Source: Emiliania huxleyi CCMP1516
Lineage: Eukaryota
Reading direction: 5' to 3'
DNA: 64,000 nt
Assembly (NCBI RefSeq): GCF_000372725.1
Contig: NW_005201192.1
Span: forward strand, 880,758 to 944,757
Shown here: in pieces, positions 6,001 to 56,300 of the stretch
How positions within the stretch are numbered: the stretch's first letter is position 1
Layout: every line of letters begins with the position of its first letter
The notes under the pieces: generated by a model
The model's database searches: none
Told to the model about the DNA's origin: nothing
What the model saw: only the letters and a program-made list of their open reading frames with translations
Made by a program: the position numbers and the translations under genes

Positions 6001-7380
6001 CTGCGCTGTTGGCGCGGCGGCGGCGCTGCCGTGCGAGGCTGGCAGCTACTCGACCGCCACCAACCTCACCGACGCGAGCGAGTGCACCGACGCCACGCCG
6101 GGCCACTTCGCCACCACCGGCTCCACCGAGCAGACGGCGTGCCGTGAGGGCAGCTTCGCCAACGGCACCCGCAACGACGCGTGCGAGCTGTGCCCCGAGG
6201 GGTACTACCAGGACCAGCCCGCCGCCGCCGCCTGCGTCCGCTGCGCTGCTGGCAAGTTTTGCCCGGTGGGGTCGTCGCGCGAGCTGGACGCGCAGTGCGA
6301 GGCGGGCACGTACGCGAGGCTGACCGACCGGAGCGGCGACCCCGAGTGCCTCGACTGCCCCGCCGGCTCGTCGTGCGGCGGCGGGGCGGCGCCGCCCTCC
6401 GAGTGCTCGCCGGGCTCTTTCGCCGCCACGGCCGGCCTCTCCGAGTGCGCCAGCTGTGCGGGCGGGACGTACCAGGGCGAGTCGAACGCGACGAGCTGCC
6501 TTCCGTGCGTGGAGGGCAGCTACTGCGCCGAGGGCGCGTCGGCGCCGCTGCCGTGCGTTGCGGGCAGCTACTCGACCGCCACCAACCTCACCGCCGCGGG
6601 CGAGTGCACCGACGCCTCGCCGGGCCACTTCGCCACCACCGGCTCCACGCAGCAGACGGCGTGCGCCAAGGGGTCGTACACGGACGCGTACGGGCAGGGC
6701 GCGTGCACGCCCTGCGCCGGCGGCACGTACCAGGACGAGGAAGGCAAGACGGCGTGCGAGCCGTGCGAGGCGGGAAGCTACTGCGCTGTTGGCGCGGCGG
6801 CGGCGCTGCCGTGCGAGGCTGGCAGCTACTCGAGCGCCACCAACCTCACCGACGCGAGCGAGTGCACCGACGCCACGCCGGGCCACTTCGCCACCACCGG
6901 CTCCACCGAGCAGACGGCGTGCCGCGAGGGCAGCTTCGCCAACGGCACCCGCAACGACGCGTGCGAGCTGTGCGCCAAGGGGTACTACCAGGACCAGCCC
7001 GCCGCCGCCGCCTGCGTCCGCTGCGCTGCTGGCAAGTTTTGCCCGGTGGGGTCGTCGCGCGAGCTGGACGCGCAGTGCGAGGCGGGCACGTACGCCAGGC
7101 TGACCGACCGGAGCGGCGACCCCGAGTGCCTCGACTGCCCCGCCGGCTCGTCGTGCGGCGGCGGGGCGGCGCCGCCCTCCGAGTGCTCGCCGGGCTCTTT
7201 CGCCGCCACGGCCGGCCTCTCCAAGTGCGCCAGCTGTGCGGGCGGGACGTACCAGGGCGAGTCGAACGCGACGAGCTGCCTTCCGTGCGTGGAGGGCAGC
7301 TACTGCGCCGAGGGCGCGTCGGCGCCGCTGCCGTGCGTTGCGGGCAGCTACTCGACCGCCACCAACCTCACCGCCGCGGG
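1..7380 (+). repeat. 780-bp coding tandem array, one unit shortened to 522 bp
   Basis: Homologous shadow ORFs start at 474, 1254, 2034, 2556, 3336, 4116, 4896, 6456 and 7236 (period 780, one step of 522). Units differ by only a few substitutions. Confidence 0.95.
2..7380 (+). CDS. Giant Cys-rich tandem-repeat surface protein (GCC2/GCC3 / ephrin-receptor-like CxxGxY..CxxC repeats); 5' end lies outside the window
   Basis: Frame of ORF 284..8224 is open through about 9.8 near-identical 260-aa units ([34 protein letters not shown]), each with several N-x-T sequons (NAT, NLT, NGT). The repeat stops abruptly at ~7380 with no normal C-terminus or TM anchor. Confidence 0.8.
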
Positions 7381-8265
7381 CGTCGCCGGGCGCGCGGCAC
7401 GCGCCGCGCGTGCGGCGCGACGTCTCCATGGTCATCGGCGAGCAGGCCACGTCCGTCGGGCCGGCGCAGCTGCTGCGAAAGCTGAAGCAGGATCTGCCGC
7501 AGTTTCCGTGGCTCGCCGAGGGCGAGGGCAACCCGGCGAACAAGGTGGTGTGGACATGCCGGAGCACGTGCGCGAGATCCTCGTGCAGCCGGTCGCGCCC
7601 AAGCGCGAGGCCGAGAGCGAGGAGCGCACCCACCGCATCCGCTCGCGCTTCGAGGAGGCGGCCGCCGACGCGCAGGCGCTGCGCGGCATGCTCATCGGCG
7701 AGGAGGACGCGACGGCGTGGTGGCGCACGCCGCGCGACGTGGCGCCCGGCGGGCGCGAGGTCACAAAGGACGACCCGCTCACCGTCCTCGTCGCCGGCGG
7801 CGGCCTCGGCGGCCTCGCCGGCCTCATCACCGCGGCGGCATGCCACGCCAAGGGGATGAAGGTCGCGCTCTTCGAGCAGGCGTCGTCGTACGCGCCGTAC
7901 GGCGGGCCGATCCAGATCCAGTCGAATGCGCCTGCGCGCCATCGAGCGCATCTCGCCCGAGTGCTTCCAGGAGCTCGTCGCCGCGGGCACCGTCACCGCC
8001 GACCGCGTCTCCGGCCTCAAGATTGGCTACAAGAAGGGCAACAAGCTGGCGGGGCTGTACGACCGCGGCGACTGGCTGGTGCGCTTCGACACGATCGGGC
8101 CGGCGCTCGAGGCGGGGCTGCCGGCGACGGTCGTCATCGACCGCCCGGTCATCCAGCAGATCCTCGTCAAGCACGGCTTCCCGGACGGCACCGTGCGCAT
8201 CAAGTCGCGCGTCGAGTCGTTTGAGGACCTCGGCGACGGCCGCGGCGTGTGCGCGACGCTCGCGG
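7381..8265 (+). pseudogene. ZEP1: Truncated, frameshifted zeaxanthin-epoxidase-like (diatom ZEP1-type) fragment
   Basis: Across three frames: ..[51 protein letters not shown] / [60 protein letters not shown]. This has the FAD GxGxxG motif and the [12 protein letters not shown] signature. Frameshifts near 7550 and 7930; no signal peptide; ends before the DG motif. Confidence 0.8.
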
Positions 8266-9138: not shown

Positions 9139-12100
9139 TCACGCGGCCCTCGCGCCTCCTCCCCCTCTGCTACGTCCGGAGCCGAGCACGTGCACGAAAT
9201 CGCTGAGACCGAGCGGCGCGTGCCCGGAAGCGGAAACCGCGCCCCGCGCGAGGCGGCGGCTCTGCCAGAGCAGGATGTTTGGCTCGATCGATTCCTGGAC
9301 GATGAGCCGCACCACCTTGGTCGCCCTCTCCTGCCCCAGCCGGCAGATGCGGCCCACCGCCTGCGCCTCGATGCCCGGCTGCAACGACGGCTCGAGCAAC
9401 ACAGCCACGCTCGCGACCTGCAAGTTGAGGCCCGCAGCGCCCGAACCGCCCGCGCCCGATGCACCCCCAAAGAGCGGCACCAGCAGCGCGTCGCACGATC
9501 CGGCGCCGGCGCCGCTCGCCCCCGCCGCAGCAGCGTCGCGTGAGACGTCGCCGTCCGCAGCCGCAAGCGGCAGCCCGCCCGCCGCCCCGAAGCGGCGGAG
9601 CGCCTCCTGCTTCGCCGCCGCAGAGCCGACGAGCGACGCGCACGCGATGCCCGCAGAGGCGAGCGCGTCGGCGGCGAGCTTGAGCAGCCGCGTCCACGCC
9701 GAGAAGACGACCACCTTCTCGCCGCGCTCGACCGCGGCCGCCACCACCTGGTGCAGCGCGGCAATCTTGGAGCCGTACTCGCGCACGAGCGACTTGTCGA
9801 GATCGCGGCCCAGCGGGACGCCGCACCCGCCCGGCGAGGCGGAGGAGGCGGAGGCGGAGGAGGCAGAGGCGGAGGAGGTTCCCGCCGCCCCGCCCGCCCC
9901 TGAGCTCCCGAACGAACCTGGCTGCCGGCCCACGCCGCTTCCCGCGGCGGCCGCCTCTGGCGGCGGCGGAGGAGGCGCGGGTTCAACCTCGAAGAGTGTG
10001 CCGGCGGTGAGCCCGCCCTGCTTGCAGACGGGGCAAGTGACCCGCTCCTCCACCCACTGCAGGATGCACTCGTAGCACCCGGCGTGGCCGCACGGCGTCA
10101 CAACCCACGCGCCTGAGGCGCTATCGTGGACGCGTCACGGACACGTCTTGGCGCGGCGACGGAGGATGTGCTGTTGACGCGCCATCGCCGCGGTCGTCGA
10201 AGCATATCGGACAAGTCTCCGCCTCGAGCGCCACCACCTAATCGATCGACACTCACTACAGACCAAATGGTCCGCTCATGGGCGATCTGTACACCTTGCG
10301 CGCCGCCACCTGCGCAGCCGCCGCCGCGCCCTCCGCCTCCGCCTCCGCCCCATCCTCTGCGCCGCCCACGCCGCCGCCCACTCCGCCGCCCGCCGCTCCC
10401 GCCGCCCCGTGGTCGTAGCGGTCCAACTTCGCCTGCAGGAATGACTCGTTCGACTTCTTCTCGCGCAGCACCCTCGCCGTGCCTTCGACGGCCGCTGCGC
10501 CCTCGCGCAGCGCGGCATCCACGCCGCTCCGCCGCCAGGCGGTAAAGATGGCGGCGAGGGCCGGGTGCCGCTTCGCAGGCCGCCCCCATCCATCTGGGGC
10601 CGCACTGGCGGCAGCGGCCGCCGCCGCCGCCGCCTCGCTCTGCGCATCCTTGCGTCCTTGCCGCCGCGACTTGACCACCTTGCCGTCGGCGTCCTGAACA
10701 ACCTTGCGTCGCTCGGCCGCCGCCGCCGCCTTGGCCTCCCGCTCGTCGTCCACGTCCCACGGCGCGTCCTTGCCAAGATACAGCTTCTTGAGCGCCGCCC
10801 GCAACACCGCCCATCGACGCGGCGCAACCACGCGAAAAGCGTGCGAGCCGCCCTTGCTGCACGCGCCGCCCGCCTCCGCGCAAGCCTCACCGACACCGTT
10901 GCCCTTTTCGCCACCCTCGCCGCCCCCGCCCCCGCCGCAGACCGCCTCCTCGGCGACCGACGCTGCCACCGTCGCCCCTGCCGCCTCTGACGCCGCCTCT
11001 GACGCCGCCGCCTCTGACGCCGCGGCCGCGGCCGCCGCCGCGCTCTTGAGCGCCGTCCCCGGCGTGCGTTGGCACTTCGCGCACTGCCGCCGCACCTCGA
11101 GGATCCGCTGCACCGCCTCGTCACTCGACGCGGCGGCGCACCGCTCTTTTGAGCGGGCGACGAGGTCGTCGAGCTCGGCGAGGACCTTCTCCTGCCCATG
11201 CAGGCCCGCGAGCGGGCCTCGCGGGGCGGGCGGCTTCGCCTTGCCAGCTTTGGTCTTGCCGCCAGCCTTGCCCTTGCCAACCCGGGTCGAACCGCCGGCC
11301 ACGCCCGCCGCCTTGCGCTTGCCCCTGGCCTTTGCGCTCGCTACCGGCGCCTCCGCGTCCGCAGCCTCCTCCTCCTCCGCCTCCGCCGCCTCCGCCGTCT
11401 CGGCAGCCACCGCGCCAACCTCCGCACCCGGATCCTCCTCCGCCTCCACCTCTAGGGTGTGCGGCGCGAGCGCCACGTGCGCCACGTACCTACAGGGAGG
11501 CTCGGACAAGCTCAGAGAAGGCTCGGAGGAGGAGGAAAAGCGCCACTTGCGCGGCGCACAGCGCGGCGCGAGCGCGCAGATGCGCCACCGCCGCGTTGTC
11601 GCGGTCGCGCGAGGCTTGCGCCACAAGCCGCTCGAGGATCGTCCGCTGCGGCAAGCGGGTTGCGGACGCGAGCACGGCCGCCTCGCCCTTGCCCAATCCG
11701 CCCCCAACCTTCTCAGCGTTGACCGCGAACGGGGAGCAGAGCATCTGCCGCACGCGGGTGAGCGTTCCGTTGAGCTCGCCCATCTTGCGCGCCTGCACCA
11801 GCGACGAGAACGCGCCCGCGCTCTCAAAGTCGCGTGCGTCCAAGCCGCGCCGCCGACGCGCCTGTGCAAATTATCGCGTTGGATAGCCCGGTGCTGTCTG
11901 TCTGTCCGCTCTCGACCTTCCGTGCGTGTGTGAAGGGCGGCCGTGCTCAAAGCCGCCGGAGAGAGGGGAGGGCGGAGGCGCTCGCGCCTCGTCAAGACGG
12001 CGCTGTGCGCCTCGCGCGCCGGCCGCCGCCTCGACGACGCGCGCGAATGCGCCGTGCGATGCGCGCAGGTCGGCGAGGGCGGCGTCGTAGGCGGCACGCT

Positions 12101-15990: not shown

Positions 15991-17168
15991 ATGGCCGAAG
16001 ATGGCGACGGCGATGTCCTTCGCATCCTAATCGCCTCCGACATGCACCTTGGCTACGCTGAAAAGGCCCGCAGGGCCACGCCGCATGCGCCGGCTGCACC
16101 CAAGCCTCTCGACTCGCGCGCCTGCGGCGCAGCCTACCGTCCCACGCCACATGCCTCTCCCGCAGCCCTCCCTCCCCGCCGCATCGTCACCACTCGCCCA
16201 GCAGCCACAATCGCAACCGGCGCCCTCAGGACCCGATCCGCGGCGAGGACTCGTTCAACACGTTCGAGGAGATCTTCATCAAGGCGAACGAGCAGCAGGC
16301 TGACATGGTCCTCCTCGCGGGAGACCTCTTCCATGACAACAAGCCCTCTCGCCGCGCCCTCCAGCGGTGCATGGAGGCGCCCGTGGCTCTCGCTCCCACC
16401 TTGAGACCTCGCACCCTCGACGCCGGTTCACACGCTCTCGCCGGTCCACAGGCCCTCGCCCCGTCTCCGCGCCCTCCTCCCTCGCCCCGTCTCCGCGCCC
16501 TCCTCCCTCGCCCCGTCTCCGCGCCCTCCTCCAGCGTCCACACCCCTCCTCCACCCTTCCCTCTCCTCCTCCCCCCCCGCTCCCCCCCCACCCCACCAGG
16601 TCCTGCGTGACCACTGCCTCGGCCAGCGCGAAGTGCACATCGAGGCGACCGACGGCCCCACGCTCTGCCACTCTCCCCCCACCCCAGCCGCCCCCGCCCG
16701 CCCACCCCCCGCCCGCCCTCCCGCCCGCCTGCCCAGCTGCTTGTCCTCACCGACGCCGCCCAGCATCATCGCCACCCCCACTCTTTCTCCGCCCCGCCGC
16801 TGCCCCGCCCGCCGCTGCCACGCCCGCCTCCCGCCCTCGCCTCCGCCGCCCTCACACCACCGCCCTCACACAACCACCGTCCTCACCGCCCGCACCGGCG
16901 CAACCTTCCTCGCCGTCGCCCTCGCACTGCCGCCGCCGCAGGTCGTCTCGGACCAGACGGCAAACTTCCACGACACTTCCTAGACACTTCCACGACACTG
17001 CCTATGTCTCTGGCCGCAGGTCGTCTCGGACCAGACGGCAAACTTCCACGACAAGTACAAGAGCGTCAACTACGAGGACTCAAACTACAACGTGCAGGTG
17101 CCGCTAGCAGTGGTGGTAGTCCTCACACAACACTCATCCGTTCCCTGCTACCTTCCCCCCCCTCTGCC

Positions 17169-17219
<51 letters not shown>

Positions 17220-20200
17220 CTCCCCCCCCCACCCCCCCCCGCCCCCCGCAGCTGCCAGTCTTCTCCATCCACGGCAACCACGACGACCCCGCCGGCGACG
17301 GTGGGCTCGCCGCCCTCGACCTGATGTCGACGGCGCGCCTCGCCTGCTCCTCTGTCCAGCCAGACACTTCCTAGACACTTCCTAGACACTTCCTAGACAC
17401 TTCCTAGACCGCTCCTCCGGCCAGCCGCGAGGAGGCCGCGAGGAGGCCGAGGTGTGGTCGAGAGTAGGCTAACCTTGTCAACTACTTTGGCCGAGACACG
17501 GCCTAGACACTTCCTAGACACTTCCTAGGCTAACCTCGTCAACTACTTTGGCCGCGCCAACGACATCGCTTCGGTGCGGCTGTACCCGATCCTGATCCAA
17601 AAGGGAATCACAAAGCTGGCGCTCTACGGACTGGGCCACCTCCGCGACGAGCTGCACGGGAACCTCCTAGAGCCTTCTCGGAACTGTCTGGGAACCTTCT
17701 AGGCCACATCCGCGACGAGCGGCTCCACCGCGCCCTCGAGCGGAAGGAGGTGAGCGTCGCTCGGCCGTCCAAGGACACCGACCAGTGGTTCAACCTCCTC
17801 GCGCTGCACCAGAACCGGCACCCCTCCCCCTCCCTCCCCTCCCCCTCCCCCCCCCCCCCCACTCCCCCTCCCCCTCCCCCACTGCCCCCTTGCCCCTCTC
17901 CCCCACAGCCCCCCACTTCGCGACCCGCTGCTGAACAGGCACGAGCGCGGCGCGGGCGACGGCAAGAAGGGGTACATCAAGGAGTCGCAGCTGCCGAGCT
18001 GCATGGACATCGTCGTCTGGGGGCACGAGCACAAGTGCGAGATCGGCTCGGGCGCCGGCACCGAGGCGGTCGGCAACAACTTCGTCGTGCTGCAGCCGGG
18101 CTCGACCGTCGCGACGTCGCTGGTCGAGGGCGAGTCCGAGGACAAGCACGTCGGGCTGCTCGAGGTGATTCGCCGAGATTCGCCGAGATTCGCCGAGATC
18201 AGCCGAGGACAAGCACGTCGGGCTGCTCGAGGAGGCTCACCTCGGCCCGTCTGCTGTAGGTGCGGGGCGACCAGTGGAAGTTCACCGCTCTGCCGCTCGA
18301 GACGGTGCGACCCTTCATCCTCAAGGACGTGGTGCTGCAGGACAGCTCTGCCCACATCTCCCCACACCTCCCCACATCTCCCCACACCTCCCCACATCTC
18401 CCCACATCTCCCCACATCTCCCCACATCTCCCCACATCTCCCCTTCACCCTCAAGCACGGGGTGCTGCAGGACTACGAGCAGGAGTACGACTTCAACGAC
18501 GAGCCCACCCTGATGGCCTTTCTGGAGGAGAAGGCGAGTCCTCTCCCCCCCCTCGACCCCGACCCCCCCCCCCGACTCCCCACACCTCCCCTCTTGGCCC
18601 TTCCCCGAACCTTCCCCGAACCTTCCCCGAACCTTCCCCGAACCTTCCCCGAACCTTCCCCGAACCTTCCCCGAACCTTCCCCGAACCTTCCGCGCAGGT
18701 GGAGGCCGCGATCTTGGAGCTGCGCGAGCGGCACACCACCACCGCTCTCACCAAGGCGGCCGAGAACCGCGCTAAGTTCCCCCTGGTGCGCTTGCGCGTC
18801 GACTACTCGGGCTACGCGACTTGCAACCCGCAGCGCTTCGGCCAGCGCTTCGTCGACAAGGTGGCGAACCCCTCCGACATCCTGCTCTTCACCCGAAAGG
18901 CGAGATCTCCCGAGATCTCCCGAGCTCACCCGAGCTCACCCGAGCTCACCAGAGCTCACCAGAGATCGCTCTCTGCTCTCCACGTCAAAGGCGCGCAAGA
19001 AGGCCGAGGCGGCAGCCGCAGCCGAGGCGCGCGACGAGGGGACGTACGACGGGGGCGAGCCCGACGACGCGCGCACGCAGATCCAGTCGTTTGTGGGCGC
19101 GCCTCCCCGCGTATCTCGGCGAATCTCGGCGAATCTCGGCGAATCTCGGCGAATCTCGGCTCGTGTGGACCGGACGGCGGCCAGCAGACGGGCTGCGAGG
19201 CTGCGAGGCTGCGAGGAGCGGCGGCGGTTGCACGGCCACGCGGCACGACACGCTCCCCCGCCCCTCTCCCTCCTCTCCCGGACAGGCGAGTTTCTGCAAA
19301 AGGGGTCCAAGGAGCAGCTGCGGCTCCTCGCCGAGCACGAGCTAAACACGGCCGTCTTCGAGGGGTACGTCGAGAAGGAAAACAAGTCCGCCATCTCGGC
19401 GGCGGTCGACGAGAAGTTGCGCCAGGCGAGCGAGAGGAGCCGAGAGGACCCGAGATCGGGCGAGATCGGGCGAGATCGGGCGAGATCGGGCGAGGTTGGG
19501 CGAGATCGGGCGAGGTTGGGCGAGATCGGGCGAGATCGGGCGAGATCGGGCGAGGTTGGGCGAGATCGGGCGAGGTTGGGCGAGATCGGGCGAGATCGGG
19601 CGAGATCGGGCGAGATCGGGCGAGATCGGGCCCGAGGTTGGCCGACAGGTGCGTGAGCTGCTCAACGGTGAGCGCGCAAAGGGCTTCGACGAGGGACCCG
19701 ATCGCAAGGTCCGAGAGTAGCCGAGAGGAGTCGCCAAGATTGGCCGAGATTGGCCGAGATTGTCGCCGACCGCACGGCGTTTTCCCGCGTCTTGCCTCAC
19801 GCCGCGCCGCTGCCGCCCCCGCACACCCACGCACCGCACACCCGCGCACCGCATACCCGCGCACCGCACACCCAAGGTTGGCACGCCCGCGCGAGAGGTG
19901 GACGCTGGCCCGCTCGCCCACGCCCCCCCCTTCAGGCCAAGGAGACCTTCATCGAAGACATGCTCGCCAAGCAGCCGCACCGCACCGCCCCTGCCGCGGG
20001 CGCCGCCTCCTCGTCCGCCGCGGGCGGCGGCGCGTCCGCGCCGCCGGCCTCTTCTGCTCTCAGCGACGCGCCGGACGACAGCGACGACGACGCGCCCGCT
20101 CCTCCTCTGCCGCCGCCGCCCCCCTCTCCATCTTAAGATAAACGTAGATACTGGCGGTATTTTATTCAACTTAACGTTTCACTGATTNNNNNNNNNNNNN

Positions 20201-25255: not shown

Positions 25256-25666
25256 CTAACCTCCGTCCTCCCGTTCACGCACGTGTGACGCAGCGGCCTG
25301 GTCGTCGTGGAGCAGAGACTGCGGTCGGGTGCCCAGTCTGCCCAACGCTGCTGCCTCCATCACCGCCTGCCGCTCGGCGCGCTCCTCCTCCGTGTCCGAG
25401 AAGGAGCAGCCGACGCCAAACTTGTTGAAGCTCCCGCCGGCGTGGCGCAAGGCAGCACTCGGCTCTCGCTGGAAGCGCTCCCACGCCGCCTGCAGCTCGA
25501 GAAACGCAGGCTCCGGGAGGCCCGAGCGGCCGCCTGCAGCGTGTGGCTGGGCGTGGTCCGGGTGCAGCTCTTTAATCCGCTCGTAGTATCGCCGCTTGAC
25601 GGTGTCTGCGCTCGCGGCGCGTGCGAGGCCGAGGAGCTTCCGCAGCTTGGAAGCCGCGTTGCTCAT
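25256..25666 (-). CDS. Small DnaJ (J-domain) protein
   Basis: MSNAASKLRKLLGLARAASADTVKRRYYERIKELHPDH..FLELQAAWERF: J-domain helices with the HPD motif, followed by FNKFGVGCSFSD. Confidence 0.8.
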   Translation of the reverse strand: MSNAASKLRKLLGLARAASADTVKRRYYERIKELHPDHAQPHAAGGRSGLPEPAFLELQAAWERFQREPSAALRHAGGSFNKFGVGCSFSDTEEERAERQAVMEAAALGRLGTRPQSLLHDDQAAASHVREREDGG

Positions 25667-25765
25667 GCGGCAGCAGCAGTGCGGTTCGTGCCTGCAGTGC
25701 GTGCAATGGTTTATCCCACGCCACAAACCCTGAGTGCGCCGACCTGGCGCTGAAGCTCAAGGCGC

Positions 25766-40477: not shown

Positions 40478-43458
40478 CTACTTGCCCGCCTTGGAGCCCA
40501 TATCGCACTTGTCGGTCATGGTCTGCCCAACCACCTTAGACTTGGTGAGCGACTCGAGCGAGTTGCCCGCTGCAACGTATGCGTCGACCTGCTCGCTGAT
40601 CCAGCTGTAGGTGTACCCCAGTCCCTCCCGCAGCGACACGCTCGGCGCCCAGCCCAGCACCTATCAGGAGTGGGGTGGGGGGGTTGGGGGGTGGGATGGT
40701 GTTTGGTGAATCAGTCACGAAGCTCCCCACAGACGACTAGTTCCATCGGTTGGTTCGCTCCAGAGACAACCACCGCGGAAACGCCCGCCATCATCTGCCA
40801 CNNNNNNNNNNNNNNNNNNNNNNNNNNNNNNNNNNNNNNNNNNNNNNNNNNNNNNNNNNNNNNNNNNNNNNNNNNNNNNNNNNNNNNNNNNNNNNNNNNN
40901 NCCCCTTTTGGTTGGGGTTTCCCCCCCCCCCCCCCCCCGCCCCCCCGCCCGCCCTTTCCGCAGTGCCTCGTGGCTGGTGGCTAGCTCTCCGCAGTGCCTC
41001 GTGGCTGGTGGCTAGCTCTCCGCAGTGCCTCGTGGCGGTGGCTAGCTCTCCGCAGTGCCTCGTGGCTGGTGGCTAGCTCGCCTGCTTGATGAGCGTGTTG
41101 TCCGAGTTGCGGCCACGAACGCCCTCGGGGCCCGGGATATGGTTGATCGGCAGCTTCTTGTTGCCGATCTCCATGACCATCTCGGCCATCTCGTTCATGG
41201 AGACCTGGCGGAGACGAGGAGGGGCCTCAGCCGAACCCAAAGCTACAAGTTCCAAGGGCGGCGTGGCGAGGCCTATGACTAGCCGCTACCAGGGGCTCTG
41301 GGAAGGGGCCCGGTGGGTGCTCGGGCTCTGGGAAGGGGGGTCGGACCTGCTCGTCCGAGCCAATGTTGAGCGGCTTCTTGTAGTCGGACACCATCAGCCG
41401 GATGATGCCCTCGACGGCGTCGTCAATGTAGCAGAAGGAGCGCGTCTGCTTCCCGTTGCCCCACATCTCGAACTCGCTCGTCGCTGTGATGCCCTGCGCG
41501 GAGCGGACGCTCAAAGATGTGTGCGGCCACACAAACCATGCGGCGGCCGAGCAAAGGGGGGGGGGGGGGGGCGACACCTTGCGGCAAAATGCGGCGGGCG
41601 CCTTTTCGCGCCCTCCCTTCCAAGTGCCGAACGGGCCGTAGATGTTGTGGAAGCGGCCGATGCGCGCCTGCACGCGCGGCGCAGCGAGGGGGCGTGGGGC
41701 CGAGCGGCGGGGCGTGCAAGGGTCGGGCGGCGCGTGCCTCCAAACTGTCTAGGAAGTGTCTAGGAAGTGTCTAGGAAGTGTCTCGCCTCCATGCCAAAGT
41801 CGGTGTCATAGTGCATGAGCAGCTCCTCGGTCATCAGCTTCTCGAGGCCGTAGGCGTCCTGCAGACAGCGTGCGGCACGCCGTGCTCGTGCTGTGGGTGG
41901 GCGGGGCGTGGAGGCGAGCGAGGCGTGTCGCGGGCTCTCCACACAAGAAGATCGTCACGGGGCGGCGGCGGCGGCGGCGGCAGCCGCGACGGAGTGGCAA
42001 GCTGGTGGCTGCGAGGCAGGAGGCGGGGCGGTCTCGCGGGCACTGGCGCTGGGAGGTGATGCGTGGTGGGAGGTGTCCGCATCCCGACGAGCCTGCGGCT
42101 GCGCGGGCCACGCGTCGTCCTCCTTGAGCCCGCTCGCGCCTGAGGCCGAGTGCAGCGGCGGGCGTCAGCCGGCAGGAGCAGGAGGGGGCGCGCCTTGTGA
42201 GGCGCTCGCGCGACGTCCGTGGATGCGCCAGCGGAGGGGGCAGGAGGTGGCTGTGGAGGTTGACACGGCAGCAAGTGCAGAGGCAGTTGCAGGGGGGGAA
42301 AGCTTGGTGTGCACCGGCAGAGTGGCAAGTGGTTGCTACACGCGGCGGGGCAAGCACGCTGCGCCGGACCAGCGAGGTCTGGTCAGAGGTGGCCGTCTGG
42401 GGAGTACCGCAGGTGAGTACCGTCTTGTGTGCGACGGCAGCGTCGTTGCCGTGTCTATGCGGTGTGTGTCGCGCCGTCGAGGTCCTCGGTGAGCTGCTTG
42501 TGCTCCGGGTAGATGCAGGCCGAGGACGCATACCAGAAGCGCTTGACGCCCGCGACACGCGCCGCCTCGGCAACCTGTCACGGGCCGCCGGCGCGGGGAT
42601 TGGTGCTGCAGCGCGCACGTCGTGCAGAGGTCGGACAGGGCGCTGCGCGCGTGTGGTGACGGTGAAGGCGGTGGCGATTGTGACAGCCTGGCGTCTGGTC
42701 GGGTGTGGCCGGCGTCCCCAGCATGGTGGCGAAGGGGGTGGGGATGGGATGGGGGGGAGGCAACGGTGACAGGGGTGGCGGAGGGTGGCGCATGACGCAC
42801 GTTGAAGCTGATCATGGTCGAGTTGTACAGGATGCGCGAGTGGTTCGACTGGATGAAGCCCATGCCGCCCATGTCCGCCTGTACCCACGCCGGCAGCTAA
42901 GGCTACCGCTGCAGTCCGCACGCTCCTGTTGCGGTGAGCGGGGCGCGCACCGCGAGGTTGAAGACCCAGTCCATGCCCTCGCACGCGGGCTTGCAGTTCT
43001 CAGCTAGCCGCAGGTCAAGGTTGAGGAACTCGTCACAGAAGGTGCCCTCCTTCATGTACTCGTTCTCCTTCCAGTCGACCGCGCGGATCCAGTGGCCCTC
43101 CTCCTTGAGGCGCTTCGCGAGGTGCGACGCGATGAAGCCGCCCGCGCCAGTCACGCAAATCTTGAGCTTGGGGAAGTCCTTGGTGAACTTCTTCTCGGAG
43201 ACGGGAGGGAGCACCATCCTGTGCGGACGGGGACGGGGACGTCGGCGGGGAAGACGGGCGCGGCGGCAGTGGGGCGGCGGGGTCACGGTGGGGACGGCAG
43301 ACGTCGGAGTCGGCGTCTACACAGGGGGCGGCGGCCTTCCGCGCGGAAATTCAAGGGCAGCAAGAGGCCGCGGCGGCGTGGGCGGCGGAAGAAGGCGGCG
43401 GAAAGGCGAGCGTTTGCATGCCACAGAAGGTGTTGAGAAGGTCGGCTGTCGCGACCAT
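40478..43458 (-). CDS. GME: GDP-D-mannose 3',5'-epimerase, multi-exon
   Basis: KICVTGAGGFIASHLAKRLKEEGH, WVFNLA/ADMGGMGFIQSNHS, YASSACIYPE, QDAYGLEKLMTEEL, RIGRFHNIYGPFGTWKGGREKAPAAFCRK, EMWGNGKQTRSFCYIDD, PLNIGSDE, HIPGPEGVRGRNSDN. Start at 43458, or the internal Met at ~43217. Confidence 0.95.
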
Positions 43459-45295: not shown

Positions 45296-48200
45296 TCATT
45301 CGAAGAGGTCCTCGAGCGTGGGGTTGCATCTGACAAAGTGGCGGAACTCCTCGGCCGTCTTGCGCCACACCGCCAGGGCGGCGCTCGCGCGCTCGCTCTT
45401 GCCGCCCGCCGCAAGGATCTCGAGCGTCTCCGAGGCGGCAGCCAGGCGCGAGGCGCACACCTGCAGCGCGTTCCCCTTGGCGGTGTGAGCGATTCCCATG
45501 ACGCTCTGCGTGCCGGCCTCGTCCCAAGGCGCCCCCTCCGCCTCGACCATGCTTTCCATGCCCCTGCCCAGGGAGAGGTCCATCTGAACCACCAGCGCGG
45601 CCGCGGTGTCCTTCGGGATGCCAATCACCGCCACAAAGTCGCGCGCGTTGAAGACCGAGTCGGGCAGCGCGGCGAGCATCTCCGCCTCCGTCTCACAAGC
45701 CGCCCCGCTCGCAGCCCCGCTCGCTGACACGCTCGCAGAGCCAGAGGCGAGCGTGGAGGAGCCCGCGGCGGGCGCGGCGGGCGCGGCGGCCAGGCCGGTG
45801 GCGGGTGCGCGCGCGGCTGCGCCGCGGCCGACGGCCTCGGAGAGGGTGGCTGGCACGCCTCGCGGGGCCTCGGAGAGGGTGGCTGGCACGACCCGCGGGG
45901 GCGAGGCGGGCGGCGGCGCGGCTCCCGCGGCGGGCAGCGCCGCAAACACCTCCTCGCATATCCGGGAGAAAGCGAGCGGGTAGACGGGCTTGGCGAGGAT
46001 TCCGTCGAAGCCGTCCACACGGAGCTGCTTGCTCATCGCGGCGTTCGTGTCCCCGCTCATCGCATACGCGCGCAGCCGCGGCCGCGCGTGGCCTCGCTCC
46101 CACTCGCGGTACCTGCGCGCGCCTCGAGCCGGGCGTCAGGGGAGCCCGCGGGGAGGGTGAGCGGGGCAGCAGCTCCCGCGGGCGGCGCCTCCGGATCGCC
46201 TCGTCGCCGCGCATGAGGGGCATGTTGATGTCGACGAAGGCGACGTCGATCTCGTGCGAGTGGGCGCGCAGCAGCTGTAGCGCCGCCTCCCCGTCGGCGG
46301 CGGTGTGCGAGATGGTGTGCCCGAAGTAGGCGATCACCTCCGACACGCTCTTCAGCAGCAGCTCGGAGTCGTCGACAAGCATCACGCGCAAGCGGCGCCC
46401 CGCCGCCGGCGGGCTCACCTCGAGCGACTCGGACGAGCCGCGCGAGCCGGAGCAGGTCGAGCCGCCCCGCTGCATCCGCACGGAGAAGGAGCAGCTCGTG
46501 CCGCAGCCGAGGCCCTCGCTGCGCAGCTCGAGCTTGCCGCCGAGCTCGGCCACCGCCTGCTCACAGCTGCAGCCGTCAGGACGCGCCGTCCCCGCGCCGC
46601 CCGCCCGCCGCTCCCCGGGCGACCGCCTTCGCGGCGATGGCGAGCCCGAGCCCCATCCCGCCGCCCTCCGCCGTCGAGGAGCGCGAGTACGGGTGCGTGG
46701 CGCGCTGCAGCTCCTCGGCCTCCATCCCTGCGGGGCGGCGGAGACGGGCGGCGGGGGTTGGCTCGGGAGGGCGCCGCTGCGCCGGCCGGTTGGAGCCGAG
46801 CTTGCGCGCCCCGGCCGGTGTCTGCGACCTCGAAGTGCGCCTCGCACAGCCCTCCGACGGGAGGCGGCTCGCTGAGCAGCTTGACCGAGATCGTGACCGA
46901 GCCTGCTCGCAAGCGGGGGCGTGTGTGAGGGGCGCTTCTCCACACAAGCCCCCGCCCAGGACGCCGCCCGCGCCCGAGGTGGTGAACTTGATCGCGTTTG
47001 TGAGGAGGTTGAGCAGGGCGCGCATCAGCCGCGAGGCGTCGACCCGCACCTACCAGAAGGTCCCTGGAAGGCTCACGGAAGGCTCCTAGCGACCGCCGCG
47101 AGGTGGTGTGATGGTGTGATGGTGTGATGGTGTGATGTGTGGTGGTGTGATGGAGGGGGGATGGTGTGATGGACGTTGCGAGCCGCACACATGCGGCAGG
47201 CGAGGGTCGAATAGGAAGTGTCTAGGAAGTGTCTAGGAAGTTGCGAGGCACACATGCGGCAGGCGGGGGTCGAATAGGAAGTGTCTAGGAAGTGTCTAGG
47301 AAGTTGCGAGGCACACATGCGGCAGGCGAGGGTCGAATAGGAAGTGTCTAGGAAGTAGGAAGTGTCTAGGAAGTTGCGAGGCACACATGCGGCAGGCGGG
47401 GGTCGAATAGGAAGTGTCTAGGAAGTGTCTAGGAAGTTGCGAGGCACACATGCGGCAGGCGGGGGTCGAAGCACGACTTGAGCTTGACCTCCGCCTTTGC
47501 GGTCGGCGAGGCGAGCAGCAGCCCGACGGTGCGCTCGATCTCTGTGACCAGGTCCACCTCCTCCTCGGCGAAGGAGGGCATCAGCAGCGCCTCGTTGCCT
47601 CCGCCCGCCTGCTGCTTGCCCTCGCCCGCCTGGCCGAGCTCCCACATGTCTGGGAAGTGTCTGGGAGGTGTCTGGGAAGTGTCCGCCCGCCTGGCCGAGC
47701 TCCCACATGTCTGGGAAGTGTCTGGGAGGTGTCTGGGAAGTGTCCGCCCGCCTGGCCGAGCTCCCACATGTCTGGGAGGTGTCTAGGAGGTGTCTGGGAA
47801 GTGTCCGCCCGCCTGGTCGAGCTCCCACATGTCTGGGAGGTGTCTAGGAGGTGTCTGGGAAGTGTCCGCCCGCCTGGTCGAGCTCCCACATGTCTGGGAG
47901 GTGTCTGGGAGGTGTCTGGGAAGTGTCCGCCCGCCTGGTCGAGCTCCCACATGTTGGAGACGACCTGCGTGGCGGGGACGCGCGGGGGTGGGTGGGGGGG
48001 GGGGGGGCGACACGCGCACAGCGGCGGGTGGGGGCGAAGCGATACGCAACCACCGCCGCCGCCGCCGCCGCCGCCGCCACCGCCGTGTGGGGGGAGAGGC
48101 GCACCAGGGAGAGCATGTGCGTGCAGGACTGCGCGATCTGGACGTGCTCGAGCAGGGACTGGGCGCGGGACTCGGCTGCAGACTTCTCCTCGGAGGCGCC

Positions 48201-49855
48201 GGCTTGCGAGACGAGGGCGGTCGCCTGCGCATTCCCCATGTGGCAGGAGAGGACCAGCCCCTGTGGGGGAGGGGGGTGGCATGTCGTCGGCACGGGTACC
48301 CCCGCGCCCGTGAGTGCCGGACCACCCGGCAGCAGAGGGGAGAGGGCACAGCAAAGGGGAAAAAAAAGGTGGGGGGGGGGAGGAGGAAACACCCAAGGGG
48401 AAAAAAAAAGTTGGGGGGGGGGGGGAGGAAACCCCCAAAGGGAAAAAAAAAGTGGGTGGGGGAAAGGGCCCCCCCAAAGGGAAAAAAAAAGTGGGGAGGG
48501 GGAAAAGGCCCCCCAAAAGGGAAAAAAAAAGTGGGGGGGGGGGGGGGGCCCCCCAAAGGGAAAAAAGGGGGGGGGGGGGGGGGGGGGGACCCCCCAAGGG
48601 AAAAAAAAAGGGGGGNNNNNNNNNNNNNNNNNNNNNNNNNNNNNNNNNNNNNNNNNNNNNNNNNNNNNNNNNNNNNNNNNNNNNNNNNNNNNNNNNNNNN
48701 NNNNNNNNNNNNNNNTAATTAAACCTTTTTTCTGTGGCACAAAACACTCATCCAACAGGGTTTGGGATTGGTATCAATCAATCGCATGATTCAACAAGCT
48801 GGGGGGGGTGGGGGGGCCTGCAGCGGCGTGCGCAGGTCGTGGCCCATCGTGCGCGCGAAGGTGCGCAGCGCGTCGGCGCGGATCTGCTCCCGCTCGAGGC
48901 GCTGCGAGAGCTGCAGCCGCTCCAGCTGGCTGTGGCTCTCGGCGGCGTGCAGCAGCAGCGAGACGGAGGAGAGCATCTTTGCGCAAAAGTCCGCGAGCGC
49001 GAGGAGCGTGAGCTCTGCCGGCTGCGAGAGCAGGTCCGTCTGGGAGGCGAGCCAGAGGGCGGGGAAGAAGCTCCACGAGAGGGCCGTCAGCGTGCTGATG
49101 AGTTGGCCCGTGAGCGGGTGCGTCGCCTGGCTCAAGATGTTTGCACACACGCGCCGCAGAGAGATGACCATGTACCCAAAGCTCGTCCCCAGCCAGCCGA
49201 TGCGCCAAGCCCAAAGCGCGGCGGCTCCGAGCCTCGCGACGGGCTCCGGCACCGCCGCCGTGGCGAGAAAGCCGGCCATCATGATGCTAACGATATTGCG
49301 GTGCAGTCGCCGCCCCGCCTTGGTGGTGGAGAGGCTGCTGCCCGAGATGAGGGCGAGGCCGGGTGTCGTGTGCGCCCACAGTACGTATCGCAGTGGCGAG
49401 AACGGCCTCCCATACGTCGAGAGGACCCCGACGCCGTCCGCGAGGGACCAGTACGCGACGCACGCCATCGCCGCGATAGCCATGCCGAGCGCCGACAGCC
49501 GCCGGCGATCCGCCGAGGTAGAGAGGAGGCAGGCGATGAAGTTGATAGTCGCGAGCGAGGCGAATGAGGACGCGGAAGCGACACTGACGGCGTCCATCGG
49601 CGCGAAGGCAGTGTCGACCGGCGGAGAGGTGGTGATAACGGCCGGCCCAAGCCAGCCAGCCGACACGGTGAGCAGCTCCTCGTAGCCGAGCGTGATGCAG
49701 CAGAAGGAGAGGAAGAGCCAGCCGGCCTCGGCGGAGGGGCGGCACTCCTCAAGCCACTGAGGCAGGCTGAGACGGTCCAGCCCACCATAGAGGAGCAGCA
49801 CGTCGGCTACGATCGCGTGAGCCGCAATCAGGCCACGCGCGCCGAGCAGAGCCAT
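45296..49855 (-). CDS. Histidine kinase rhodopsin: type-1 rhodopsin + HisKA + HATPase_c + receiver + HPt, multi-exon
   Basis: Exon 1: helix C RYVLWAHTTP, helix F SWSFFPALWL, helix G LADFCAKML (Lys codon 48977-48979), coiled coil, H-box GHDLRTPLQ. Later exons: N-box LLNLLTNAIKFT, G1 FEVADTGRG, G2 GMGLGLAI, GGKLELRSEGLGCGT; REC VMLVDD..AFVDINMP..AMSG..LAKP; HPt IAHTAKGNALQVCASRLAAASETLE; stop at 45296. Intron 1 spans an N-gap. Confidence 0.88.
47180..47950 (-). repeat. Two intronic tandem arrays, each unit being an exon-end copy plus GACACTTCC(T/C)A repeats
   Basis: 47623-47952: six copies of ATGTGGGAGCTCG(A/G)CCAGGCGGGCG at a 61-bp period. 47185-47470: five copies of TTCGACCC(C/T)CGCCTGCCGCATGTGTGC. 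Confidence 0.9.
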
Positions 49856-49958: not shown

Positions 49959-50510
49959 CTAGGGATCCGCATCCGTCACCGTGAGAGCGTCGGCGCCGTC
50001 CTTCTTGTACATCTCCATTGCCGACGCCGCCACCGTCTCCAGGCCCGCCAGAACCTGCACGGCAGTGCCCGCGCCGGTCTGGGTCTTCCGCTGCTCGCGC
50101 CGCTGCACCATCTTCCAATCTTTGCCATCGCGTCGGGAATCGAAGATGCTCTTGACCATGGCGGAGGTGCCCTTCACCGGCGCTCCCGCGACCTCGTTCG
50201 CAGTGAGAGCCGCCTCGTCGAAGGCTCCCCGCTCCTTCGCGGCCTGCTGCGTCCGCACCACCTCCATCGCGTTCGCCGTCTGCGCCTTGAGCTTCGCCAC
50301 CTTCGCCTTCCTCTCCCGCTCCGCCGCCGCCTCCCGGTCCTCGCGGCGGTCCGCCAGGGGGTCGTCGCCGCCGTCGTCAGCCACGATCATGGCCGTGACG
50401 GCCTCGCCCGCCATATCGTTCTCGCCGGTCGATCGCGCGTCCCAAAAGTCGCCAAAAGTCGCCAAGAAGCGGCGGCGAGTCGCAATCACCCGCCCGCCGT
50501 CCCGGCGGTC
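49959..50510 (-). pseudogene. Start-less coding fragment, probably transposon-derived
   Basis: Open frame ..RFLATFGDFWDARSTGEND..ERERKAKVAKLKAQT..; no ATG context; family not recognised. Confidence 0.25.
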
Positions 50511-53320: not shown

Positions 53321-56300
53321 ATGGACGTCGCTGCGTCTTACAATCAGCGGCTGCCCTGGCCCGCGGTTATGGACGTCTCGCCCGAGGACAGGCCCGTCGC
53401 CATCCGCACGTCGTCCATGGGAAGCACGCCGCTCGACACGCACGCAAAGCGGCTGCGCAGCGAGGCGGAGCTCGACTCGTGCCCGCTGCACGAGCCCGAC
53501 GAGCCCCCGCTGAAGCGGATGGAGTTCACGCCGTGTCACTCGCCCACGCGCGCCGAGCAGACGCCGCCCGAGGACATGGCCAGCGTCATGCCGCCGAGAC
53601 GGCTCGCCAGCGTCGGCTTTGGCACGCCCATCTCGGGCCACCCCATCTGCTGCCCGCTCGTGAGCGAGCTGCGCCTGCGGTACGGCATGCACCAGACGCA
53701 GGGCCCGAGAAAGTGCGCGCTCCCGCCCCACACCCCTTCCCCTCCAGAAAAGCTGTCCCCTGCCCTCCCATGCCCTCCCCTGCCCTCCCCTGCCCGCAAC
53801 CTGCACGCATGCTGCGCGCCTCACCCCTCTCTCACCGGCCGCGGCCCGCCCCGCCCGCGCAGCTCGATGGAGGACAGGACGGTGTGCAAGCTCGAGCGCG
53901 CCAATGGCGGCTTCGCGCCTTCGCACGGCTTCTTCGCCGTCCTCGACGGACACGGCGGCTCTGCAGCCGCGGTGTGCGCTCCCCTCCCCCTCCCCTTCTG
54001 TGCGCCCCTCGCTCCCAGCCACACCCAGCGCCTCGCCGCCCGCCCTGCAGGAGCACTGCGCAGAGCGGCTCCACGCCAACCTGGTCGGATCGCACCACTT
54101 CCCCGACTTGGTGCCCACCACCACCCGCTCTCCCTCCCGGACCGCACACACCCCAGTCCCAACGCTGCTTCTGAAACAAGCTGCCCTCCACACCCGACGC
54201 GGACGTACATGCCGCGCCGCCGCAACGCCACTCCTCCGACTCCTCCCCCACACCAGACCCTTCCACAGTGCTTCCACAGTGCCACCACAGCCCCTCCCCG
54301 ACCTCTGCCCGCTTCACCACCCTCTCCTGCATCCTCTCCACCTCCAGACGCCGCCTGCTCTCACGCCCCCCCCCCCCCCCCTCCCCGGCAGGTGCCTGCG
54401 CTGCAGGACGCCTTCCTGCGCACCGACGCCTCGTTCCTCTCCTGGGCCGCCTCGCCCGGGCGGAGGGCAAAGGCGCGCCGCTTGTCGGAGCCTCGGCACA
54501 CCCCCCTAACCCCCCCTTCCGCTCTCTCGCTCCCCTCCACGGCCCACCTGCAGAGAGCAAACGCCAAGCAGTGGCGCCCGCATCTCTGCACCGCATCTCT
54601 GCACCGCGGCTCTCAGCTCGACGGCCCCACGGCGCAGGAGTCGCACGCCGGCGCCGCAGCCGTCGCGCTCGTCGTCACGCCGAACCACTTGACGGTCGGG
54701 CGCAGCCCGACGCCCCCACTTGCACGCTGGCCACGCGAGGTGGTGTGACCCGGGAGGAATGGGCCTGCCTCAGGTTGCGCACGCGGGCGACTGCCGCGCC
54801 ATCCTTGTCAAGAAGGAAGGGGCGACCCGCTCGTTCGAGGCACCTCCTCCACCTCCTCCACCTCCTCCACCTCCCGTCCTCTCTCGCTCTCTCGCTCTCT
54901 CTCTCTCGCTCTCTCGCTCTCTCGCTCTCTCTCTCGCGCGCGCTCTCTCGCTGTCGCGCACTCTCGCACTCTCTCCCGCCCCTCTCTTCACTACTCCCAG
55001 TCCGCTCCCGCTGCAGGCCCTCACGCACGACCATGTGGCCGAGAGGTCGATCTGCGCCGAGGAGGCTGACCGCGTCGAGCGGGTGCGTGCGCCTCCCCCC
55101 CTCCCGCCCTCCTCGCCCCTCGCGTGCTGCCTTGCTCAGCACCTCTTGCTCAGCACCTCTGTTGCCGGCGAGCAGGCGGGCGCCTCGAACGTGCCCGGCA
55201 GCGTGCGGGTGGGAGAGCACGATTTGCCGATGACACGCGCGTTTGGCAACTTGCGGCTCAAAGTGGCTGCAGGCAGAGACTGGACGCAGGAGGCGGCCAA
55301 TGCGCAGGTGACGCCGCTGCCAGACCTCTCCACAGCTCACCACACGCGATCGGCACGGCCACGCCGCCACGACCCAAGCAGGTCGTGACGGCGCTGCCGG
55401 ACGTGTCCGTCTTTGCGCGCGGTCCGGACGACCTCGCCGTCGTGGTCGCCTCGGACGGGCTCTTCGGCGAGGTGAGATGCTACCTAGACACTTCCTAGAC
55501 AGTTCCTAGACATTTCCTCCTCCTCGGACGGGCTCTTCGGCGAGGTGAGATGCCGCCCGGAGTGAGGACTGCCTAGGACGGGCCCCTCACACAAGAACAC
55601 ACCCCCGGACCCAAGACGCACAAGCACAGACAGTCGAGAAGCAGCCGGGCCCTCACACCGCAGCCTCTGGAGGCGGCGAAGTCACCGCCCGCCGACCGTC
55701 GGAGACACTACCTAGACACTTCCTAGACATTTCCTCCTCGCCTCCCCAGGTGCTCTCGTCCGAGCACGTTGCCGAGTACACCCGCGCCGCCCTGCAAGAG
55801 AACGCTGCGACGGGCGACGCAGAGGGCATGGCTGCGCGCAGGCTGGTGGAGCGCGCCATCCACCACCAGTCGTCGGACAACGTCTCGGTGGCCGTCGCCT
55901 CTGGAGGGTCGAGAGCGCGTGACAGGATTGCTCAGCACCGCATCACCGCCTCTCAGGTCGTCGTCGTCTCGCTCGAACCTTCCGAGGGCTCGGCGGTGCC
56001 GCCGCAGCTTCGCCACACCTTGCCCCACCGCCAAGCAGCGCTCTGCTTCAACCCGCCTCGCCATGACCAGGCGTCGCCGGACCTCGCGCAGGAGAGTCCG
56101 GACTTGCTGCGCGAGGACTCGACGGCGACGCAGTCTTTCTCGCCCGGCCGGCGCGTCGCGTCTAGTCGAACACACCACGTCAAGACTCAGTCCCGCGCTG
56201 AGTCTCTAGGCCCCCCCCCCCCTTCTTCTTCCACACACTGCTCCAGCCCCCCTCTCCCGCCTTTCCTTGCTTGGCTCTTGCTCAGCCGTGACACGTCCAA

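Follow-up and report, generated by a model that had tools for sequence, protein, structure and literature searches.

Does a single gene of Emiliania huxleyi carry a complete light-regulated phosphorelay? The question is raised by the minus strand of positions 45296-49855 of the window, by which we mean the whole stretch of 64,000 nucleotides (nt) analysed here (strain CCMP1516, contig NW_005201192.1, positions 880,758 to 944,757). A sequence-only reading had placed there a rhodopsin fused to a histidine kinase (HK), a receiver (REC), and a histidine phosphotransfer (HPt) domain. According to our analysis, one chain of 952 residues is likely a light-regulated phosphorelay that runs from His339 to Asp667 to His890 and on to a separate response regulator. 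We established the gene structure, the splicing of seven of its eight introns, the order of the domains, and the conservation of the relay residues.

Nine exons of the minus strand are spliced into a 952-amino acid (aa) protein with no internal stop; six of the introns are GC-AG and two are GT-AG. The domain order in this model is rhodopsin (K293), H-box (H339), ATPase, receiver (D667), linker, and HPt (H890). The motifs from which the fusion had been proposed were all found where they had been placed. Exon 1 (48818-49855), which encodes residues 1-346, comprises two extra N-terminal helices, the seven-helix rhodopsin core, a signalling helix with its coiled coil, and the H-box, as judged from the sequence, the Pfam Bac_rhodopsin match, and an AlphaFold model; RYVLWAHTTP lies at 49390, WSFFPALW at 49075, and DFCAK contains K293 at 48979-48977. 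The remainder of the dimerisation and phosphoacceptor (DHp) domain is in exon 2 (48105-48260), followed by exon 3 (47935-47964, 30 nt) and exon 4 (47450-47629). Exon 5 (46974-47049) contains the N-box at 47010, exon 6 (46810-46902) the G1 box at 46822, and exon 7 (46627-46727) the F box and the G2 box at 46659. The end of the ATPase domain and the first half of the receiver, with the DD pair (D620, D621) and D667 (46232-46230), are encoded by exon 8 (46189-46556). The second half of the receiver (S700 and K722-P), an Ala/Pro linker, the HPt domain, and the stop codon share a single open frame in exon 9 (45296-46112). The start at 49855 agrees with those of the homologues P0001, P0002, and P0040. 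An in-frame Met further upstream (49972) was ruled out as the start because the homologues begin at the 49855 position.

The Pfam scans, which covered single exon stretches and the protein P0007, had been proposed as a check for five families, and three of them were recovered in the exon stretches above their cut-offs: Bac_rhodopsin (49.6 bits, E 4.6e-13), HATPase_c (37.4 bits, E 3.9e-9), and, in exon 8, Response_reg (39.1 bits, E 9.5e-10). HisKA, a domain interrupted by intron 1, scored 13.4 bits and remained under its cut-off, as did Hpt.

The splice evidence consists of contigs from eight of the ten public runs that contain exon 1, and these runs come from three studies. Seven of the eight predicted intron lengths occur as skips in the contigs, including intron 1, which crosses an assembly gap. 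As the contigs skip exactly the predicted introns, they imply messenger RNA, and it is from this match that we infer the RNA origin of the runs. Intron 1 (48261-48817, GC-AG) is 557 nt long as assembled and contains a gap of 100 N. Its joint is present in 4/4 runs, with a short side of 156 letters in one run and 27 in three; in 4/4 further runs, a loose end reads the end of exon 1 (255 letters in one run and 22 in three). The joints of introns 2, 4, 5, 6, and 8 were present in 8/8 runs, that of intron 4 (400 nt) with at least 31 letters on the short side in two of them, and the joint of intron 7 in 7/8. In addition, a single contig of 964 nt extends from exon 4 to within exon 9. The contigs leave approximately 45725-45874 uncovered, where a 33-nt tandem repeat lies and the reading frame of the DNA stays open; we count this hole neither for nor against the model.

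These contigs bear directly on whether the rhodopsin exon could belong to one gene and the kinase exons to another, the two being placed side by side only by the scaffold gap. Such an arrangement would explain the 100 N between exons 1 and 2 and the omission of exons 1-3 from the named gene models; moreover, there are three near-identical named loci, so the contigs could derive from other copies. The spliced contigs, however, bridge both sides of the gap, one of them with 0 mismatches across 1,050 nt of exon 1, and the H-box lies inside exon 1. The homologues are single chains as well, and a published partial transcript reads across exons 1-3 (PMC8017926). We therefore consider separate genes very improbable and largely refuted. 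The linkage of exon 1 to exon 2, for which transcript evidence had been called for, is thus confirmed, and the open frame, the spliced contigs, and the single-chain homologues all agree with one rhodopsin-HK-REC-HPt gene.

The published transcript is a partial E. huxleyi sequence of 730 aa in Dataset S3A of PMC8017926, filed in clade A.2 alongside the rhodopsin-kinases (Rhod-HKs) of Mamiellales under the label 'Enzyme.Rhod_Prot.Kin_CYC'; the clade placement is that of the dataset. Its first 400 letters read across the exon 1-2-3 joints, and by its length it would stop near residue 739, ahead of the HPt domain. The transcript is not described in the examined parts of the main text of that paper. 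The view that the architecture had not been characterised thus needs to be narrowed: we found no description of the architecture, but the rhodopsin-kinase part had already been tabled as an enzyme rhodopsin (PMC8017926).

Introns 4 and 3 (47171-47470 and 47623-47954) are packed with tandem units of 63 nt and 61 nt, respectively, each of which is a copy of the splice-adjacent exon end plus 11-nt repeats. The window contains 30 copies of the 11-mer, where 0.06 would be expected; it is also found at 16973-17528, 41749-41781, and 55488-55726. The contig depth at these repeat sites reaches thousands. The repeat occurs at intron ends across the genome, where it leads gene callers astray.

The haptophyte origin that had been suspected was borne out, as the HPt frame falls into a 90% cluster with the E. 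huxleyi proteins EOD35535.1, EOD05949.1, and EOD21609.1, all of them named 'putative sensory transduction histidine kinase'; the adjoining window gene clusters with EOD35536.1. The three EOD models match residues 394/403-952 at 97-98% identity and contain neither the rhodopsin nor the H-box; they begin after exon 3, so that gene predictors did split the gene, as the sequence-only reading had anticipated. Word-index protein searches returned one relative each, whereas a full HMMER search, with P0001 as the query against 1.84 billion representatives, recovered the family as a set of close relatives.

The same architecture, which it had been suggested to seek in relatives, is present in full-length single chains: P0001 (1040 aa), P0033 (1005 aa), P0207 (1040 aa), and P0202 (1063 aa), with identities to the window model of 41%, 40%, 39%, and 27%, respectively. 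P0207 scores above the Pfam cut-offs of all five families, and 7/13 members of the P0033 cluster are full length. P0202 is KAL1512198.1 of Prymnesium parvum, with a diverged membrane domain and no Pfam rhodopsin match; Prymnesium polylepis contributes one fragment of the family. The residues H339, D667, K722, and H890 are retained in 5/5 HPt-bearing full-length proteins. The expected absence of a cyclase also held, since neither exon 9 nor any of the full-length homologues scanned matched a cyclase family in Pfam, and no effector domain follows the receiver in the full-length members scanned. A kinase-domain tree was built from 34 rows, comprising 10 of the family and 24 other HMMER matches chosen by rank, none of them a green-algal histidine kinase rhodopsin. 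The 10 family rows stand on one side of a 92/89 branch that is not starred; the bootstrap is unsettled, and no origin is drawn from it. A metagenome scan gave four short loci, none of which extends to the kinase.

Several relatives differ in their layout. P0001, P0033, P0207, P0042, P0045, and P0049 have about 30 extra conserved residues past the HPt domain (ending at about LEKIAAAL), which the window protein lacks. A related rhodopsin at positions 61-1140 of L003 has a WAHT helix C and keeps the Lys, and its helix G leads into a low-complexity tail without an H-box; a similar sequence is the adjacent row in Dataset S3A of PMC8017926. P0044, near the family in the kinase tree, is a hybrid kinase of 1593 aa that has two receivers and begins with a TauE/SafE-like membrane domain.

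For the light sensor, we modelled exon 1 with AlphaFold from a 13-row alignment (predicted local distance difference test score, pLDDT, of 78.7). The model suggests a type Ib rhodopsin fold, that is, one bearing the additional helix TM0. The long helices are predicted at residues 6-22, 39-64, 89-111, 115-138, 154-172, 179-199, 211-243, 247-272, and 278-340. The closest fold is the rhodopsin phosphodiesterase (Rh-PDE) 7d7q (VIA-align, Z 23.4, root mean square deviation 4.1, 258 residues aligned, range 27-317), and the Salpingoeca Rh-PDE ranks first by sequence profile, Foldseek, and VIA-align. Since the alignment to this best match covers residues 27-317, the predicted helix 39-64 (49664-49741, minus strand) would correspond to TM0, a feature of type Ib enzymerhodopsins; it also lies within the range aligned to bestrhodopsin 7pl9 (31-315). 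A further hydrophobic helix is predicted before it at residues 6-22 (49790-49840, minus strand), with a block pLDDT of 83-86 and a hydropathy peak in both the window model and P0001. This helix is conserved and falls outside the Rh-PDE-aligned range, which starts at residue 27; it is a possible ninth membrane helix and could thus add a crossing to the eight, with a cytosolic N-terminus, that are typical of histidine kinase rhodopsins. In the ESM Atlas, every match to residues 1-345 of P0001 scored below 0.9.

The retinal pocket was read in bacteriorhodopsin (BR) numbering, with the window equivalents of D85, D96, Y185, W86, W182, P186, D212, and K216 taken, guided by alignment, to be as follows. 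The D289-F-C-A-K293 segment of helix G (48977-48991, minus strand) provides the counterion Asp and the retinal-binding Lys positions; the Lys is present in 6/7 full-length family proteins, and residue 289 is acidic in the same six. W160, W261, P265, and K293 (BR W86, W182, P186, and K216) are retained in 5/5 HPt-bearing full-length proteins, and the D212 position is Asp in four of these and Glu in one. At the D85 position, there is no carboxylate; the residue is Leu159 (49379-49381, minus strand), and Leu is found in 5/5 HPt-bearing full-length proteins. A conserved His follows two residues past the helix C Trp of RYVLW. The D96 position is Ile170 in the window protein and Ile or Leu in the family, so the carboxylates at D85 and D96 that mark a bacteriorhodopsin-type pump are both missing. 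The pattern is consistent with a single-counterion sensory pigment and not with a pump.

The phospho-acceptor His339 of the H-box (GHDLRTP; 48839-48841, minus strand) lies 46 residues past K293, as the sequence and the homologue alignment place it. The helix 278-340 is predicted to be unbroken, which would make helix G and the helix carrying the His a single continuous helix; in 5/5 HPt-bearing full-length proteins, the Lys and the His are 46 residues apart. This continuity and the fixed spacing argue for rigid coupling of the pigment to the kinase.

At the C-terminus, the HPt domain (45299-45679, minus strand) was recognized from an HxxKG motif, His890 (45487-45485), K893 (+3), and G894 (+4), and from the family profile. 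It is joined to the receiver by a low-complexity Ala/Pro/Ser linker of residues ~736-815 (45710-45949, minus strand) that is poorly conserved relative to its flanking domains; the identity to P0001 is 19/80 in the linker, 49/137 in the HPt domain, and 61/126 in the receiver. The HPt His and the Lys at +3 are invariant in 7/7 aligned domains. A seven-row profile searched against the PDB gave eight matches with E of 10 or less, seven of them named HPt or histidine kinase chains, the best being 7c1i (E 0.002). The eighth, BRIC1, is presumably a design built from the CheA HPt domain. In the PDB matches displayed, the HPt His is aligned, and the window HxxKG falls on that of solved HPt domains. A two-row profile placed two plant HPts on top (E 0.8 and 1.1), and a single-sequence PDB search with the window domain returned nothing useful. 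The ESM Atlas gave Hpt clusters at 0.94, with 10/10 named matches in one family or clan. The structural model, built from a two-row alignment (pLDDT 49), is all-helical, and its fold searches returned generic bundles, with a rice HPt at Foldseek rank 42. The HPt-like C-terminus that had been proposed is matched by the family profile, and we take the domain to be a true HPt, although it is the weakest link of the chain.

We propose that retinal would be bound to K293, with D289 as the sole carboxylate counterion, and that its isomerisation would shift helix G and thereby switch the dimeric kinase. Light would control either the autophosphorylation of H339 or the transfer from it. Receiver and HPt domains are a textbook pair, and the phosphate would pass from H339 to D667 to H890 and then to a separate regulator. 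The long linker may let the tethered HPt swing back and forth, from the receiver of its own chain to the partner regulator, and the tether may insulate the signal from other kinases. For the sign of the response, we lean slightly towards kinase activity in darkness and inhibition by light, because the Cr2c-Cyclop1 kinase of Chlamydomonas operates without light and its transfer is inhibited on illumination; matching Lys, His, and Asp residues are required in that protein (PMC6284317). As a speculative last step, the relay would most likely act on gene expression, placing it under day-night or spectral control. The relay proposed for Ostreococcus tauri runs from Rhod-HK through a separate HPT to TOC1 (PMC4343026, PMC12704426). 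Haptophytes are described as lacking canonical clock components (PMC8017926), and the target in E. huxleyi would therefore differ from TOC1.

Several observations weigh against the light-regulated relay and have to be set beside it. As to the gene, intron 3 (47630-47934, GC-AG, 305 nt) consists of five 61-nt repeats that copy the splice junction, and its joint was found in 0/8 runs. It was inferred from the frame, the ungapped match to P0001, and contig end points; two contigs start three unaligned letters before the last 61-nt copy, as would be expected of the form with intron 3 spliced. No whole-gene contig was present among the contigs of the eight runs, and no partner response regulator was recognised among the 20 window open reading frames (ORFs) scanned. 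As to the sensor, the carboxylates are lost at the D85 and D96 positions, with Phe at the Y185 position, and the family appears able to shed retinal binding, since P0090 has a rhodopsin-like domain without the helix-G Lys fused to a kinase. As to the output, the window HPt scores 16.8 bits (E 0.008) against the Pfam Hpt (PF01627) cut-off of 24.6, which only 4/13 HPt-bearing family sequences scanned pass, two of those four belonging to the same 90% cluster; by Pfam, it is of the weakest kind within the family. The HPt domain also appears not to be essential to the kinase family, because a sister form (the P0196 cluster, Lys-to-His spacing of 37) stops after the receiver.

The altered pocket and the Lys-less P0090, together with P0202, which gives no Pfam rhodopsin match, would suit a sensor with a rhodopsin fold that has given up retinal and relays another cue, such as lipid, salt, or redox. 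We regard this as improbable: K293, D289, W160, W261, P265, and W268 are all retained in the window protein, P0001, P0033, and P0207 at about 40% identity, and known algal rhodopsin kinases are photoactive without D85 (PMC7693036).

An in-frame skip of 126 nt at 45442-45567 deletes the His890 helix in 4/4 runs of one study and in 0/4 runs of two others. Its short side measures only 25 letters, it lacks an AG acceptor, and it shows a 5-nt microhomology; it may be a deletion allele or an artefact.

The kinase could also be light-regulated, with its output in the receiver itself and the HPt serving mainly as a sink or a port for reverse flow. ArcB-type kinases are known to pass phosphate backwards through their fused HPt, a sister form lives without the domain, and the 126-nt skip suggests that a product without the His may be tolerated. 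The skip, however, may be no more than an artefact, and no effector domain follows the receiver in the full-length members scanned, so that forward transfer is the simplest exit. A sink or port is thus an unlikely role, and the relay through His890 to a separate regulator remains our preferred reading. More tentatively, and with rather more doubt than conviction, these proteins may form a photoreceptor family of the haptophytes' own, with a nine-helix rhodopsin, a neutral D85 site, a fixed 46-residue helix, a complete one-chain phosphorelay, and sister forms that lack the HPt or the retinal.

Emiliania huxleyi is a major bloom-forming calcifier. How light enters gene control in haptophytes is an open question, as canonical clock components are reported to be missing (PMC8017926). 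The gene is a concrete, testable candidate for such a light input, and the reference annotation hides it, because the three named models have neither the sensor nor the H-box. In the part of a eukaryote-wide kinase survey examined, these three models are likewise omitted, and its three E. huxleyi kinases have other accessions (PMC6324907). The histidine kinase rhodopsins are hereby extended to a family with Emiliania and Prymnesium members, and the fused HPt is a new output module among enzymerhodopsins. If the proposal is true, the protein would offer optogenetics a one-chain light-switched phosphodonor. Should the more tentative reading of a photoreceptor family of the haptophytes' own hold as well, response regulators could be driven optogenetically from a single gene, and no light input to a nuclear two-component pathway of a coccolithophore would have been described before this one.

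Upstream of the start codon, a minus-strand frame of 151 aa (49959-50414) ends 104 nt away, is found on separate contigs in two runs, and has a weak DUF3422 match under the cut-off. The window ORF scan further identified, all on the minus strand, an NAD-dependent epimerase (41076-43316), a RING/helicase C-terminal protein (9142-10134), and a DnaJ-domain frame (25259-25756). On the plus strand, a frame of 2740 codons (2-8221) with long Cys-rich repeats and an Ephrin_rec_like match in its first 266 residues is probably a giant surface protein.

How, then, does the window protein compare with known systems? Among the closest are the Ostreococcus tauri Rhod-HK (Ot-HKR) and those of other Mamiellales, which likewise combine rhodopsin, HisKA, HATPase, and REC without a cyclase (PMC12704426, PMC4343026). 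PMC7693036 also tabulates Rh-HisK-RR proteins that have no cyclase, from Ostreococcus, Micromonas, and other sources; its main text has no match for HPT, phosphotransfer, Emiliania, or haptophyte. A cyclase-less rhodopsin kinase as such is therefore not new, contrary to what had been supposed, and the novelty lies in the fused HPt, which is undescribed in the literature searched. In O. tauri, the HPT is a separate protein with TOC1 as its target, whereas it is fused in the window protein; among the Mamiellales rows listed in Dataset S3A (PMC8017926), the helix C motif is R(Y/F/H/Q)LEW, which places Glu where BR has D85, as against RYVLW with Leu in the window protein.

Like Cop5/HKR1 and Cop6/Cr2c-Cyclop1 of Chlamydomonas, the window protein combines a putative type Ib rhodopsin with a kinase and a receiver, lacks D85, and has the Lys, His, and Asp of the relay (PMC6284317, PMC7693036); Cop5 and Cop6 are reported to work without D85 (PMC7693036). 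Unlike both, which have a cyclase-like end, it ends in an HPt domain, and its Lys-to-His spacing is 46 versus 54 in Cr2c-Cyclop1 (K298, H352; PMC6284317). The rhodopsin phosphodiesterase of Salpingoeca rosetta (7d7q, 7cj3) is the best profile and fold match and shares TM0 and the long helix G with our model, but it carries another enzyme, is 16-18% identical, and leaves helix 6-22 outside the aligned range. The His-Asp-His series in one chain recalls ArcB and BvgS, both unorthodox HK-REC-HPt kinases. A fused Hpt is also reported in kinases of Physarum and Albugo (PMC6324907), and Dataset S6 of PMC8017926 lists HPT matches in LOV proteins of one diatom and one haptophyte. The window protein differs from the ArcB, BvgS, Physarum, and Albugo kinases in its rhodopsin sensor, none being described for those in the sources consulted. 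No rhodopsin kinase with a fused HPt, and no description of the family, was found in the literature searched, which covered few subscription papers and no subscription reviews of enzymerhodopsins. With a helix-G Lys in its rhodopsin domain, DHp, ATPase, and receiver in one chain, a predicted TM0, and, unlike the Cop6 type, no cyclase after the receiver, the window protein is by every testable feature a histidine kinase rhodopsin and not a 2c-Cyclop. It is set apart from the described histidine kinase rhodopsins by its fused HPt, by the Leu at the D85 position with a conserved His nearby, and by a possible ninth helix.

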